From assembly GCF_003334335.1 (NCBI RefSeq), contig NZ_QOWQ01000001.1: a stretch of DNA of 64,000 nucleotides; one strand, written 5' to 3'. Position 1 is the first letter of the stretch, and each line of letters opens with the position of its first letter. The stretch is from Escherichia coli. GTDB taxonomy: Bacteria; Pseudomonadota; Gammaproteobacteria; Enterobacterales; Enterobacteriaceae. Positions 3,001 to 9,000 of the stretch are shown piece after piece. Position numbers: made by a program.

Positions 3001-6000
3001 ACTTTTTTGAAAAGATTCAGAAGGTGAATAGCTCTGAAGACAATGAAGAGATATTCGATGATGATAATATTTCAATTTTCTCGTTACTCCCGGCATATGC
3101 GTTGAGTGAGATAAAAAGTGCATTTATTATAGGTTTTTATATCTATTTACCCTTTGTTGTAGTGGATCTGGTTATATCCAGCGTTCTGTTAACGTTAGGT
3201 ATGATGATGATGAGTCCGGTAACCATATCTACACCGATAAAATTAATTTTGTTTGTCGCGATGGACGGTTGGACAATGTTATCAAAAGGACTCATTTTAC
3301 AATATTTTGACCTATCCATTAATCCCTGAGGAAAAAATATGGACGATATTGTTTTTGCAGGGAATAGGGCGCTGTATCTGATTTTAGTTATGTCTGCAGG
3401 ACCTATCGCAGTTGCGACATTTGTTGGTTTATTAGTAGGGCTTTTTCAAACGGTAACACAGTTGCAAGAACAGACGTTGCCATTTGGCGTGAAATTATTA
3501 TGCGTAAGTATTTGCTTTTTTTTAATGAGCGGATGGTATGGCGAAAAATTATATTCTTTTGGTATTGAAATGCTGAATTTAGCATTCGCGAGAGGATAGC
3601 ATGGGTGAGGCGATACTCTATCAGTTGCATAGTCTGCTGGCTGCTACAGCGCTCTGTTTTTGCCGATTGGCACCCACTTTCTATTTGTTACCATTTTTCG
3701 CCAGTGGGAATATACCAACAGTAGTCCGTCATCCAATAATAATAGTGGTATCATGTGCATTAGTTCAGCATTACCACTATGAATTATTGAACTTAAATGA
3801 AATCGATATTGCTTTGTTCGCTGCCAGAGAAATTATCATAGGGCTGTTTATTGCATGCTTATTAGCATCCCCGTTTTGGATTTTCCTTGCTATAGGTAGC
3901 TTTATCGATAACCAACGCGGTGCAACATTAAGTAGTACTTTGGATCCGGCTACAGGTGTCGATACCTCGGAATTAGCAAGATTATTTAACCTTTTCTCTG
4001 CTGCGGTTTATCTTACTAAAGGTGGAATGAACTTTATTCTGGAAACTCTTTGGCAAAGTTATAATTTATGGCCTTCAGGCAATTTTAATTTTCCTAAATT
4101 AGAGCCTTTATTCTCATATATTAATAACATAATGACTCATACTATCGTTTACGCAAGCCCCGTGATTGCCGTTATGCTGGGCGGTGAGGCTGTCCTGGGA
4201 TTGCTGGCACGTTATGCTTCACAACTAAATGCTTTTGCCATTTCACTGACTGTCAAAAGTGCGCTGGCATTTTTAATATTAATTATTTATTTTGGCCCAA
4301 TACTGGCTGAACGAGTAATGCCGTTATCCTTTTTCCCAGAACAATTGCAACTATACATTGAGAAATAGAGTGTTTCATGGCCAATAAAACTGAAAAGCCA
4401 ACACAAAAGAAACTCCAGGATGCTTCTAAAAAAGGGCAAATTCTAAAAAGTAGAGACTTAACCATCTCTGTAATAATGCTTGTGGGTACTTTATATCTCG
4501 GATATGTTTTTGATGTGCATCACATTATGTCGATTCTTGAATACATCCTTGATCATAACGCTAAACCAGATATTTGGGACTATTTTAAAGCTATGGGGGT
4601 TGGTTGGTTGAAAACGAACATTCCTTTTTTGCTGGTTTGCATGTTCACAACAATACTTGTCTCCTGGTTTCAAAGTAAAAAGCAATTAGCAACTGAAGCT
4701 GTTAAATTTAAGCTTGATTCATTGAATCCAGTAAATGGCTTAAAGCGTATATTTGGCTTAAAAACCGTAAAAGAATCTGTTAAAGCAATTCTTTATATTA
4801 TTTTTTTTGCATTGGCGATCAAAGTATTTTGGAGTAATCATAAATCACTGCTTTTTAAAACTCTTGATGGAGATATCATATCTTTATTATCAGATTGGGG
4901 AGAGATGCTATTCCTTCTCATACTGTATTGTCTCGGCAGTATGATAATTGTCTTAATTTTTGATTTTATCGCTGAATATTTTTTATTTATGAAAGATATG
5001 AAAATGGATAAACAAGAAGTTAAAAGAGAATACAAGGAGCAAGAAGGAAATCCAGAAATTAAGTCTAAACGCAGAGAGCGCATCAGGAAATTCTTTCTGA
5101 GCAATTGAAGTCTGATGTCAGTAATAGTCGTTTGATGATTGCCAACCCTACTCACATTGCAATAGGGATATACTTTAAGCCACATCTTTCACCTATTCCA
5201 TTGATTTCTGTAAGAGAAACTAATGAGGTAGCCTTAGCCGTAAGGAAATATGCAAAGGAAATCGGAATACCAATTATCACAGATAAAAAATTAGCACGAA
5301 AAATTTATGCTACCCATCGTCGCTACGATTATGTTAGCTTCGAAAATATAGATGAAATATTACGTCTTCTGCTGTGGCTTGAAGATGTGGAGAATGCTGG
5401 GCAACCTGTTCCAGATGAACAGCTCTCTTCAGAAGATAAATTCATTGAAGGTGAAGAGAAAGAAATCGAGAATAAAGACGATAATTTAAAAAATTAAACA
5501 TCTGTCGTAGTCAGAAATTTATAAGAATCTACACGCAAAAACCGTGTAGATTCATTATTTAATGAGTTAAATGATCTTGTGAAATGACAAGCAATTGATA
5601 CATACTCATCTCTTTATAAGCTGGAACTGTAGTAACCTGTGCAAATTCGCGATATAGCTTTTGCTCCAGTTCTGCTGTAGATATATATTCCGGGTGTTCG
5701 CTAAAGAACTGTCTTGCATCTACTATCGCTTGGGATTCGCCACTTCTTTTATTTTGATTCTCCTTTAATGAATTTTCTCTGGTGCATGCAGAGAGCAACG
5801 ATATCAGCGCGATGGTTATTATGATTTTACTATTATATCCTACTAATGACATATCAACTTTCTCTTACGCAAGATTGGAGTTTAAAATAATGTTTATCCC
5901 ATTCACAGAGTGCTATAAACAACTCAACAGTACCTTTTATGTTAAGTTTATTTAGGGCTCTTATTTTGTGATATGATACTGTTTTATAATCAATTCCTTT

Positions 6001-9000
6001 AATAATGGCTACTTGTTTTAACGAGTAAGAAACACATAACCGCAGGATATCTATATCATCATGGGTAAGTGCTTCTTGTGTGGAATACACATTTTGTGTA
6101 TGAAGATTCGAAATCAGGAAATGCGTTAAATCAGATAATCTAATATTCTTATTGATCCTGATGAAATTGTTGCTTAAAAGGATGTTTACAGGTTCTGTAT
6201 TTGGTTTGAGATTTCGATGTTGATGCTCATCAATAACAACGAATGAATGCCCAAGATCAACCAACGCAACTAAATCGCTGTAATATTCTTTTTGGGATGC
6301 TAATAATGCATTAGTGACTACAGTGAAGTAGACATCACTGGAAAAGACTTGCATATGCCAACCTGTACTCTAAAATCATTTAGGGTAAATATTACGTGTA
6401 AAAGTTAAAATAAGAGTAATTGTTATATTTGCTTAACATTGGGGGAATAGGGTTTATACCTTAAATTGTAAATAAAGTTATGCATAGAGGCATTTAAAAT
6501 AGTCCTCGAAATTATAATTTTTTATTCTGTGTCATCATATTTTGGTCATGAAATTTCCGTCTTGTTACACTACTCTAAACTAGAGCTTATGGAATTAGCG
6601 GGTGCTATTCATGGAAAATAATGATAAATTCTTATCACAAGACTTATTGGAATCTTATGCCATTCGTTTGTTGAGCGGACCATTGAATGGATGCGAGTAT
6701 GAAATACTTAATGGGCGTCTACTTGTTATCATTGGTAATGATGTTTCGTTAGGAAGAAGTGATGCTTTTTCTGAGTTACCAGAAAACACAATAGTCGTTC
6801 CTTATGGCGAGCTTACAGGTAGTTTTGAGATAATAATTACTACCGACCCTGATCTGGTAGTAACATTCAGAGAATTAACAGCACAAGAACCTGAAGATAG
6901 AACGTTAACATTGAATCAGCAAATAGAAGTTTTAGGTCTCAAATTTGCTGTAAAAGAAAAAAATGAAGTTTGGCAGTATTCATTGCCAGGCATTATTGAA
7001 AATAACATTATTTCTACAAAACAACATTTCTTTAGCAGTAAGCTGTTTAAGTATGTAATGCTTTTTTTTCTTTTTGCTATCATTTTCATTGCTTTTTATA
7101 TTGTTAATGCCAGTAATGATCCGCAGCTGAGACATATCGATAAAATTCTTGTAAACAAAAACAGGAATTATGAAATTTTATATGGTAGAGATCATGTTAT
7201 CTATATTAATACCAATATTTTGGATGAAGCAGTCTGGGTCAAACAAGCACTGGAAAAAAATCAACCAGGAAAGCCAGTACGGGTGATAAATCCTGATGAT
7301 GAATCGATACGAATTTTTTCATGGCTTGCTGATAATTTCCCTGATTTACAATATTTTAAACTTCAACTATTAGATGCCAGTAATCTAAGATTGACAGTGA
7401 GTAAGCAACGGAACGCTATCACACAGCAACTAATCGATAATCTTATTAAAGGATTACTGCAAACTATGCCATATGCCAGCAATATAAGTATTGCGGTATT
7501 AGATGATAATGTATTGGAAAGTCAGGCTATTGAAACGTTGTCAGCGATAGGTCTTTCTTATGAAAAATATAAAACAGCTAACAATGTGTATTTCAATATC
7601 ATTGGTACGTTAAGTGACAGTGAATTAAATAAAATTAATAACTATGTTGACGAATATTATAAACAATGGGGTAAACAATATGTAAGATTTAATGTGAATT
7701 TGAAAAATCAGGACACAAATAATAGTTCATTTAGCTACGGAGATAACCGATTCGAGAAGTCTCAAGGTAGCAAGTGGACATTTCAGGAATAATTGAGGAA
7801 GACTTATGGCAGATTGGAATGGTTATATTATGGACATCAGCAAACAATTTGATCAGGGCGTTGATGATCTGAACCAGCAAGTTGAAAAAGCGTTGGAGGA
7901 TTTAGCAACCAATCCTTCCGACCCGAAATTCCTTGCCGAATATCAAAGTGCATTAGCTGAGTATACATTATATCGAAATGCGCAATCTAACGTTGTAAAA
8001 GCGTATAAAGATCTTGATTCGGCAATCATACAAAACTTCCGCTAAACTGGATAAGGATTTTATTATGTCAGTAAGCAATATGCCACCTATTGATAGAGCT
8101 GAGCAATCAACTGCTCATGAAATACAGCAAGCGAAAGTGATTGATTTAAATGACCGGGTTCTCAATCTTGACAACCCGGATGATAAAATGATCTCCGCTT
8201 TTGCTAACTATGCTGTACAAACTGAAAATTGGCAGCAAAATGCGTTACAAGCATTAACGTCTGATAAAAAAGGATTAACTCCTGAAAAATTATTAGTCTT
8301 GCAGGATCATGTGCTTAATTATAATGTCGAGGTTTCATTGGTGGGAACATTAGCAAGAAAAATTGTCGCTGCAGTTGAGACGTTGACCCGCTCATGAAAT
8401 ATATATCATTATTATTGTTTATCCTGCTGTTGTGCGGCTGCAAGCAGCAGGAATTACTGAACCATCTTGATCAACAGCAAGCTAATGATGTCCTTGCTGT
8501 TTTACAAAGACATAATATTAATGCTGAAAAGAAGGATCAAGGCAAAACTGGATTCTCAATCTATGTTGAACCAACGGATTTTGCTTCTGCGGTGGATTGG
8601 CTAAAAATCTACAATCTCCCGGGTAAGCCTGATATTCAAATATCGCAGATGTTCCCTGCAGATGCACTCGTTTCATCTCCACGAGCGGAAAAAGCAAGGC
8701 TATATTCTGCTATTGAGCAGCGGTTAGAGCAATCTCTCAAAATTATGGATGGTATTGTTTCTTCGAGAGTACATGTTAGTTACGATGTTGATACTGGCGA
8801 TAGTGGTAAAACTGCTTTACCAATTCATATTTCTGTACTTGCAGTATATGAAAAAGATATCAATCCAGAAATAAAAATAAATGACATAAAGAGATTTATT
8901 GTTAATAGTTTTGCAAGCGTACAATATGAGAATATTTCTGTTGTATTGTCAAAACGAAGAGACATTATTGAGCAAGCACCAACATATGAAATTAGCGAAC

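Follow-up and report, generated by a model that had tools for sequence, protein, structure and literature searches.

What is the small gene that lies directly behind the regulator gene etrA in the island of Escherichia coli's second type III secretion system (ETT2), and what is left for its product to do in a genome whose secretion system is incomplete? The question was examined in a stretch of 64,000 nucleotides of E. coli (NCBI RefSeq assembly GCF_003334335.1, contig NZ_QOWQ01000001.1), the whole of which is called the window below. The product is very probably the ETT2 homologue of Salmonella InvH, the pilotin of SPI-1-type injectisomes (SPI-1, Salmonella pathogenicity island 1), encoded on the etrA transcript and persisting in this genome as an intact vestige with no client. 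An earlier note on this DNA had described a 97-aa open reading frame (ORF) with a lipobox on the minus strand, had seen no recognisable domain in it, and had speculated on a pilotin-like or regulator-partner protein left over from the secretion system, to be checked by profile search, structure prediction and a survey of conservation. The ORF was found as described, with lipobox LSAC and Cys23, and is resolved into the following features:

5559..5852, minus strand: invH-like gene for a 97-aa InvH-family outer-membrane lipoprotein, the predicted ETT2 pilotin (SctG class); ORF, Pfam, PDB match, AlphaFold2 (AF2) and Foldseek
5784..5852, minus strand: predicted lipoprotein signal peptide, aa 1-23; sequence pattern and hydrophobicity
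5580..5777, minus strand: InvH domain, aa 26-91; Pfam, family alignment, AF2 and Foldseek

Family, fold and predicted client of the lipoprotein

The invH-like gene is not a chance ORF: its product matches Pfam with E=1e-30, and each of the 13 E. coli alleles sampled keeps it, as does L023, a divergent Escherichia-type locus with an apparently complete ETT2 and a pilotin of 84% amino acid identity. The hmmscan match in Pfam-A is to InvH (PF04741; 106.5 bits) and covers the whole model (positions 1-81 of 81) on aa 26-91; the other pilotin families of type III secretion systems (T3SS) in Pfam-A (MxiM; YscW/ExsB) gave no match, the only hit besides InvH being DUF6567 at E=0.2, and PF04741 is also precomputed for the sister clusters P0013 and P0033. 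A phmmer search of all PDB sequences returned Salmonella InvH alone (6xfj, 6xfk, 6xfl; E=5e-7, residues 43-95). An AF2 model built on a 16-sequence family alignment has a mean predicted local distance difference test (pLDDT) score of 83.7, with 96-98 for residues 41-97, and its first four Foldseek matches in the PDB are all InvH (6xfj, 6xfk, 6xfl; probability 0.99-1.00), the best superposition being on 6xfk_A (template modelling (TM) score 0.88, root-mean-square deviation (rmsd) 0.9 Å). The profile search and the predicted fold thus bear out the earlier guess of a pilotin-like protein, overturn the statement that it has no recognisable domain, and lend nothing to a regulator-partner role, the fold being that of the secretin-binding InvH domain.

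The helical core of the protein (aa 43-96) bears the family motif FFxEHPEY...L...F...SMYQLL. When 1.84 billion cluster representatives were searched exhaustively with HMMER, about 15 distant clusters were recovered, a small InvH-like family in which the distant homologues are all 82-148 aa long and all carry FFxEHPEY...SMYQLL in the C-terminal domain. Another candidate, P0046 (968 aa with 14 'InvH-like' stretches), was dropped from the family as an unrelated tandem-repeat ORF.

The N-terminus consists of an n-region (MSLVGYNSK), an h-region (IIITIALISLL) and the lipobox L-S-A-C, followed by TR. The hydrophobic core is 11 residues long with a mean Kyte-Doolittle value of 3.1, the sole basic residue in the n-region of the window allele is K9, and the codon of Cys23 occupies 5786-5784. 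In a pattern-level check the N-terminus matches the PROSITE-type lipoprotein pattern; the lipobox Cys is invariant across the 16-sequence alignment, and the full-length members have a hydrophobic leader. Cleavage and lipidation at Cys23 are inferred from these features, and an inner-membrane retention signal is lacking because the +2 residue is Thr.

For the presumed client, the secretin EivG (SctC), the O157 protein was compared with Salmonella InvG. The two align over their full length (E=1.5e-187), including the C-terminal helix of the S-domain (DELLQKWIKTYLNR in EivG vs DKLQKWVRVYLDR in InvG), in which LQKWIKTYLNR and LQKWVRVYLDR, respectively, stand opposite each other. The alignment of EivG with MxiD, whose pilotin MxiM belongs to an unrelated family, ends at residue 529 of 567 and leaves the C-terminal helix outside. 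When a fusion in which a 20-residue Gly-Ser linker joins the pilotin domain to the C-terminal 53 residues of EivG was modelled with AF2, with per-residue confidence as the sole read-out, pLDDT was about 90 in the pilotin domain, about 40 in the linker and 78-85 in the final EivG helix, a result that is compatible with docking of the pilotin on the EivG tail and is suggestive only.

By the mechanism known for the family, the precursor would be exported by Sec, lipidated at Cys23 and cut by signal peptidase II, and the Lol system would carry the lipoprotein to the outer membrane, as +2 is Thr. The C-terminal helical domain would then clamp the last S-domain helix of EivG and escort the secretin to the outer membrane, where the 15-mer EivG pore would assemble.

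The protein is an annotated member of the InvH pilotin family, already known as such in the databases and overlooked in ETT2 reviews. The window ORF is RefSeq entry WP_000060555.1, 'invasion protein', and the alleles are currently labelled either so (WP_000060555.1 and variants) or 'hypothetical protein'. A 2014 review states that invH is absent from ETT2, and the original Sakai numbering passes directly from ECs3720 (etrA) to ECs3721 (epaS) with no gene number between them. Neither InvH nor a pilotin is mentioned in a 2020 paper on sequence type 69 (ST69) or in a 2024 ETT2 review, and the ETT2 literature searched, from which Ren et al. 2004 was missing, nowhere mentions 'ETT2' and 'pilotin' together. 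The earlier remark that small lipoproteins of such islands often go unannotated therefore holds for the Sakai numbering and the 2014 review, which miss the gene, and fails for current RefSeq, which annotates it. The statement on the absence of invH from ETT2 is thus corrected, the cluster encoding its own pilotin, which is relevant to the question of ring assembly in the outer membrane by 'intact' ETT2 loci (ST69, 042-type). The findings are modest in consequence and will not surprise a T3SS specialist.

Junction with etrA and state of the surrounding island

The gene closely follows its upstream neighbour and lies in a partly decayed T3SS cluster, for which these features are needed:

5854..6354, minus strand: etrA, the 166-aa LuxR/GerE-type helix-turn-helix (HTH) regulator of ETT2, WP_001195875.1; ORF, RefSeq, size and position
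5850..5856, minus strand: stop-start junction TGA-t-ATG of etrA and the invH-like gene; sequence
5525..5553, no strand: hairpin with an 11-bp stem between the convergent invH-like gene and epaS, likely a bidirectional terminator; terminator scan
6355..6601, no strand: divergent etrA/eprH intergenic region, presumed promoter region of etrA-invH; consensus matching
4377..5497, plus strand: epaS (SctU), the convergent neighbour, a pseudogene in two frames (4377-5108 and 5105-5497); ORFs and RefSeq, 'frameshifted' in strain PK6

The assignment of etrA agrees with ECs3720/etrA in length (501 bp) and in its slot between eprH and epaS, and its product has weak matches to C-terminal HTH domains of the NarL/FimZ type. 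The junction reads ...GAA AGT TGA t ATG TCA..., with the stop at 5856-5854, the spacer t at 5853 and the start at 5852-5850, so that the lipoprotein begins 1 nt after the regulator stop and the pair converges on epaS, as the earlier note had stated. TGA-t-ATG is kept in 13/13 sampled E. coli alleles and in L023, where the hairpin stem at 5525-5553 is also retained through a compensatory A-T to G-C change. The best anti-Shine-Dalgarno pairing in the 21 nt upstream of the invH-like start is weak (TAAGAG, -2.9 kcal/mol), and the terminator scan found no terminator between the two genes. Co-transcription and coupling by termination and reinitiation are plausible from this arrangement; given the junction and the weak Shine-Dalgarno sequence, the ribosomes that translate the invH-like gene are probably those that finished etrA immediately before. 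Because the spacer is 1 nt, published etrA deletion mutants may be polar on the invH-like gene, which is worth controlling for where the allele is in frame. In strain 97-3250 (L018), codon 144 of etrA is changed from GAG to TAG, giving a 143-aa product; this places the premature stop 70 nt from the invH-like start, and any coupling would therefore be abolished.

In the presumed promoter region, one sigma-70-like match was found at 6402..6375 on the minus strand; this is no more than agreement with the consensus, and such matches are not more numerous than chance would give. A scan for an internal promoter of the invH-like gene within etrA counted 4 sigma-70-like sites, vs a chance expectation of 6.9±2.7; two of them, near 5850, lie across the start codon. 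A small RNA like Salmonella InvR beside the gene was considered and rejected: an Rfam scan of 5200-6800 gave only a chance rne5 fragment (16 bits vs a gathering score of 180).

Over its first 12 kb the window shows 100% identity to many E. coli chromosomes, that of strain PK6 among them. In PK6 the genes follow one another as tRNA-Gly, ygeQ, a hypothetical gene, an eivJ fragment, epaO (frameshifted), epaP, epaQ, epaR, epaS (frameshifted), 'invasion protein', the HTH regulator, eprH-K, orgA (frameshifted), orgB, ygeK (internal stop), pbl (frameshifted), ygeI, ygeH and ygeG. The invH-like gene is thus flanked by epaO-S and eprH-K/orgAB, a T3SS cluster of the SPI-1/Inv-Mxi-Spa type. The block eivF-eivG(sctC)-eivE-eivA-eivC-eivI, present in O157:H7, is deleted in the window-type genome, and because it is missing the ETT2 of the window cannot build an injectisome. 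With the secretin gene eivG deleted, the invH-like protein of this genome has no client and is therefore an orphan. Most likely it survives as an intact vestige that the etrA transcript carries along, and the earlier wording, left over from the secretion system, is apt here. The locus offers a clean natural case of a dedicated assembly factor that outlives its client, with hints of relaxed selection.

In the large-deletion isoform of ETT2 (window 1-1700 and upstream; L002 5756-7727), tRNA-Gly, ygeQ and the hypothetical gene run straight into a 120-bp eivJ fragment. Besides epaS, the pseudogenes according to RefSeq for PK6 are epaO (1727-2674), orgA (9209-9724) and the iagB-like pbl (11272-11748), all frameshifted, and ygeK/etrB (10781-11227), which has an internal stop, while etrA, the invH-like gene, eprH-K, ygeH and ygeG are still intact in this genome type. 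The remainder of the 64-kb window is ordinary E. coli chromosome, with Rfam matches at gathering score (29302-29585, 58007-58080, 59508-59550 and 62566-62771) to OmrA, OmrB, one tRNA, ES036 (CssrF) and GcvB.

Alleles, selection and other possible roles

The survey of conservation, which covered 5,426 complete E. coli genomes, found the invH-like gene in about 3,039 and the secretin gene eivG in 984. A 951-bp region was recovered from 3,086 genomes (3,022 at ≥80% coverage) and the whole stretch from eivF to etrA from 938, while the deletion isoform, taken as the 37% coverage class of the eivF-to-etrA search, accounts for about 2,050. Alleles at codon 5 were counted with megablast queries of 52-53 nt centred on the site; since the queries are so short and so placed, seeds must span it. 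The counts were:

+1 frameshift at the codon-5 site: 436 genomes
In frame, R5: 468 genomes
In frame, G5: 2,135 genomes
G5 subset, exact window type (K9): 759 genomes
G5 subset, exact K9N type, whose n-region lacks any basic residue: 1,270 genomes

The R5 and frameshift alleles together (904) come near the total of secretin-positive genomes, and the G5 count comes near that of carriers lacking the secretin; of the sampled members of the R5/frameshift group, the three that were examined in full are all secretin-positive. By inference from these totals, about two-thirds of carriers have the pilotin without the secretin, and nearly half of the secretin-positive genomes may have a pilotin with a broken start.

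Nine of the 13 sampled alleles are intact (97 aa), one is cut short by a nonsense codon (position 92) and three are frameshifted, namely that of O157:H7 and those of two genomes of another lineage, in which a T inserted after codon 4 yields MSLVMI-stop; RefSeq gives the frameshifted alleles an 88-aa product started at an ATC codon. The codon-5 frameshift (O157:H7 and about 116 other genomes) is one more lesion against a working ETT2 injectisome in O157. The same single-T insertion stands on two haplotypes, that of O157:H7 (L003 16320-16350) and that of L012/L021, which differ at 44 of 962 positions (95.4% identity), and must therefore have arisen by recurrent mutation or been transferred by recombination. 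The K9N change (AAA to AAC; codon 9 is window 5826-5828) defines the commonest single allele, which includes those of APEC 789 and strain 97-3250.

Polymorphism was compared with that of etrA as follows (segregating sites are given as synonymous/nonsynonymous; pN/pS is the nonsynonymous to synonymous polymorphism ratio):

Mean pairwise pN/pS: invH-like gene 0.22-0.24, etrA 0.16
Segregating sites, G5 group (including the window allele): invH-like gene 2/9, etrA 10/13
Segregating sites, R5/frameshift group: invH-like gene 10/6, etrA 13/4

For the invH-like gene the two groups differ with Fisher p=0.047, which suggests past purifying selection that was relaxed in the G5 group, a group about as large as the secretin-less set; the pattern fits constraint at the time when the system worked and drift in genomes without the secretin.

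Several points weigh against a clientless InvH-type vestige. The relaxed-selection signal amounts to 11 sites in 7 sequences that are not phylogenetically independent, and the match of alleles to secretin status is inexact, at least one member of the G5 group (L015) having the secretin. The ORF is intact in most secretin-less genomes, which could mean retained function. The window protein fails the strict PROSITE side-rule, which asks for K or R in the first seven residues, as K9 comes too late. Its linker is much shorter (97 aa in total vs 147 positions in the NCBIfam InvH model), and the NCBIfam InvH equivalogs NF011869 and NF011870 score 31.6 and 22.2 bits, respectively, on aa 41-95 only; with 31.6 bits against a cutoff of 305, the protein is a member of the family and not the NCBI-defined equivalog of Salmonella InvH. 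Expression, lipidation and secretin binding are, for every ETT2 allele, presumed.

The alternative that fares best, though an improbable one, is that this member of the InvH family has retained or acquired a role independent of the secretin, either a second envelope function of a mobile pilotin or an effect in cis of its translation on the stability or tuning of the etrA mRNA. It draws on the codon-5 site being in frame in about 86% of the 3,039 carriers when some two-thirds of carriers have no eivG, on the full-length alleles (9 of 13) and the overall pN/pS given above, and on the Yersinia SctG work on mobile pilotins and regulator expression (10.1101/2022.02.14.480308). Against this, the changes in the G5 group are mostly nonsynonymous (2 synonymous and 9 nonsynonymous, vs 10 and 13 in etrA of the same genomes), 1,270 genomes have lost the final basic residue of the n-region through K9N, alleles with nonsense or frameshift changes are in circulation, and an intact 294-bp ORF is expected anyway from the short time since the deletion. 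That the pilotin is kept in about 2,000 secretin-less genomes for such another job, be it in the envelope or by coupled translation that sets the level of EtrA, is given a slim chance. EtrA influences LEE (locus of enterocyte effacement), fimbrial and flagellar genes, and a cis role on it, if true, would turn a 'dead' remnant of a T3SS into a regulatory module that is active.

It is very unlikely that the protein serves as pilotin for another secretin, such as EscC of the LEE in enterohaemorrhagic and enteropathogenic E. coli or GspD of the type II secretion system. The only argument for this is that an orphan pilotin needs some client, but InvH-type pilotins bind a specific S-domain helix that is conserved between InvG and EivG, whereas the MxiD alignment stops short of it (529/567); moreover, O157:H7, which depends on the LEE system, has a broken copy of the gene, and related pilotins do not cross-complement (10.1101/2022.02.14.480308). 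A protein that is not exported and acts in the cytoplasm as a partner or anti-activator of EtrA, with the coupled junction fixing the ratio of the two, would suit the tight stop-start arrangement conserved across alleles but is scarcely credible in view of the invariant lipobox Cys in the 16-sequence alignment, the hydrophobic leader of full-length members, the secretin-binding InvH fold and the homologues elsewhere, which stand beside prgH, sipD, invF or hilA-like genes with no EtrA-like neighbour.

Comparison with known systems

The contexts of homologues in other genera were taken from exact-protein look-ups, and most distant homologues of the ETT2 pilotin lie within T3SS clusters of the SPI-1 type or what remains of such clusters. 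The invH homologue of Yokenella has the Salmonella arrangement, divergent from invF-invG; that of L008 lies between prgH and sipD...spaS, the same slot as in E. coli ETT2; in L011, a short contig, it adjoins the translocator genes sipD-sipC-sipB-sicA; and in L006 and L009 it precedes a hilA-like gene, which is followed by an iagB-like one. An unannotated ORF of 69 or 87 aa with no Pfam match lies 17-18 nt upstream of the homologue in these last two (L006 7774-7983 and L009 7719-7982). A regulator-pilotin pairing beyond Escherichia was considered for L010 and rejected, its upstream GerE-type gene being unrelated to EtrA (E=3.7). As no homologue elsewhere has an EtrA homologue upstream, the etrA-invH operon appears to be specific to Escherichia ETT2.

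A scan of genome contigs with the family alignment confirmed a single locus, L004 (CABHOW010000183.1, 4,995 bp), filed as a 'Flavihumibacter sp.' metagenome-assembled genome, whose protein shows 100% identity to the ETT2 pilotin of E. coli; this filing is almost certainly a binning or contamination error.

Salmonella InvH (SPI-1; PF04741; 6XFJ, 6XFK, 6XFL) is likewise a small outer-membrane lipoprotein of an Inv-Mxi-Spa-type T3SS, with 32-36% identity in the C-terminal domain, and the secretin EivG retains the C-terminal S-domain helix of InvG. The two differ in the linker between anchor and domain, about 70 residues in Salmonella vs about 20 in the ETT2 protein, and in gene order: Salmonella invH is divergent beside invF-invG, whereas the ETT2 copy follows etrA between epaS and eprH, with the secretin gene absent here. 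The short InvH-family lipoproteins of other enterobacterial SPI-1-like islands, among them those of Yokenella regensburgei (WP_167810271.1) and Dryocola sp. (WP_435954194.1), resemble the ETT2 pilotin in length (90-115 aa), lipobox, short linker and FFxEHPEY...SMYQLL motif; they share 28-45% identity with it, and none has an EtrA homologue upstream. Shigella MxiM, the pilotin of MxiD, does the same job in the same T3SS family but has another fold and belongs to another Pfam family, which gave no match in the ETT2 protein.

A close parallel to the presumed operon is yscW(sctG)-virF/lcrF of Yersinia, in which a T3SS pilotin is co-transcribed with a T3SS transcription factor and not with structural operons. 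The exsB-exsA pair of Pseudomonas is a pilotin-regulator operon of the same kind. In both, unlike in ETT2, the pilotin has the YscW/ExsB fold of an unrelated family, with no Pfam match in the ETT2 protein; ETT2 has the opposite order, the regulator preceding the pilotin, its regulator is of the LuxR/GerE type and not the AraC type, and the junction is a 1-nt stop-start spacer vs an intergenic RNA thermometer. According to the Yersinia SctG study (10.1101/2022.02.14.480308), most T3SS pilotins share an operon with the main T3SS regulator, altered sctG shifts expression of the co-operonic regulator, and pilotins are mobile, perhaps with functions beyond secretin assembly, although even closely related ones fail to cross-complement. 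By analogy with these pairs, the linkage of etrA to a pilotin gene fits a known theme and would not be unusual.

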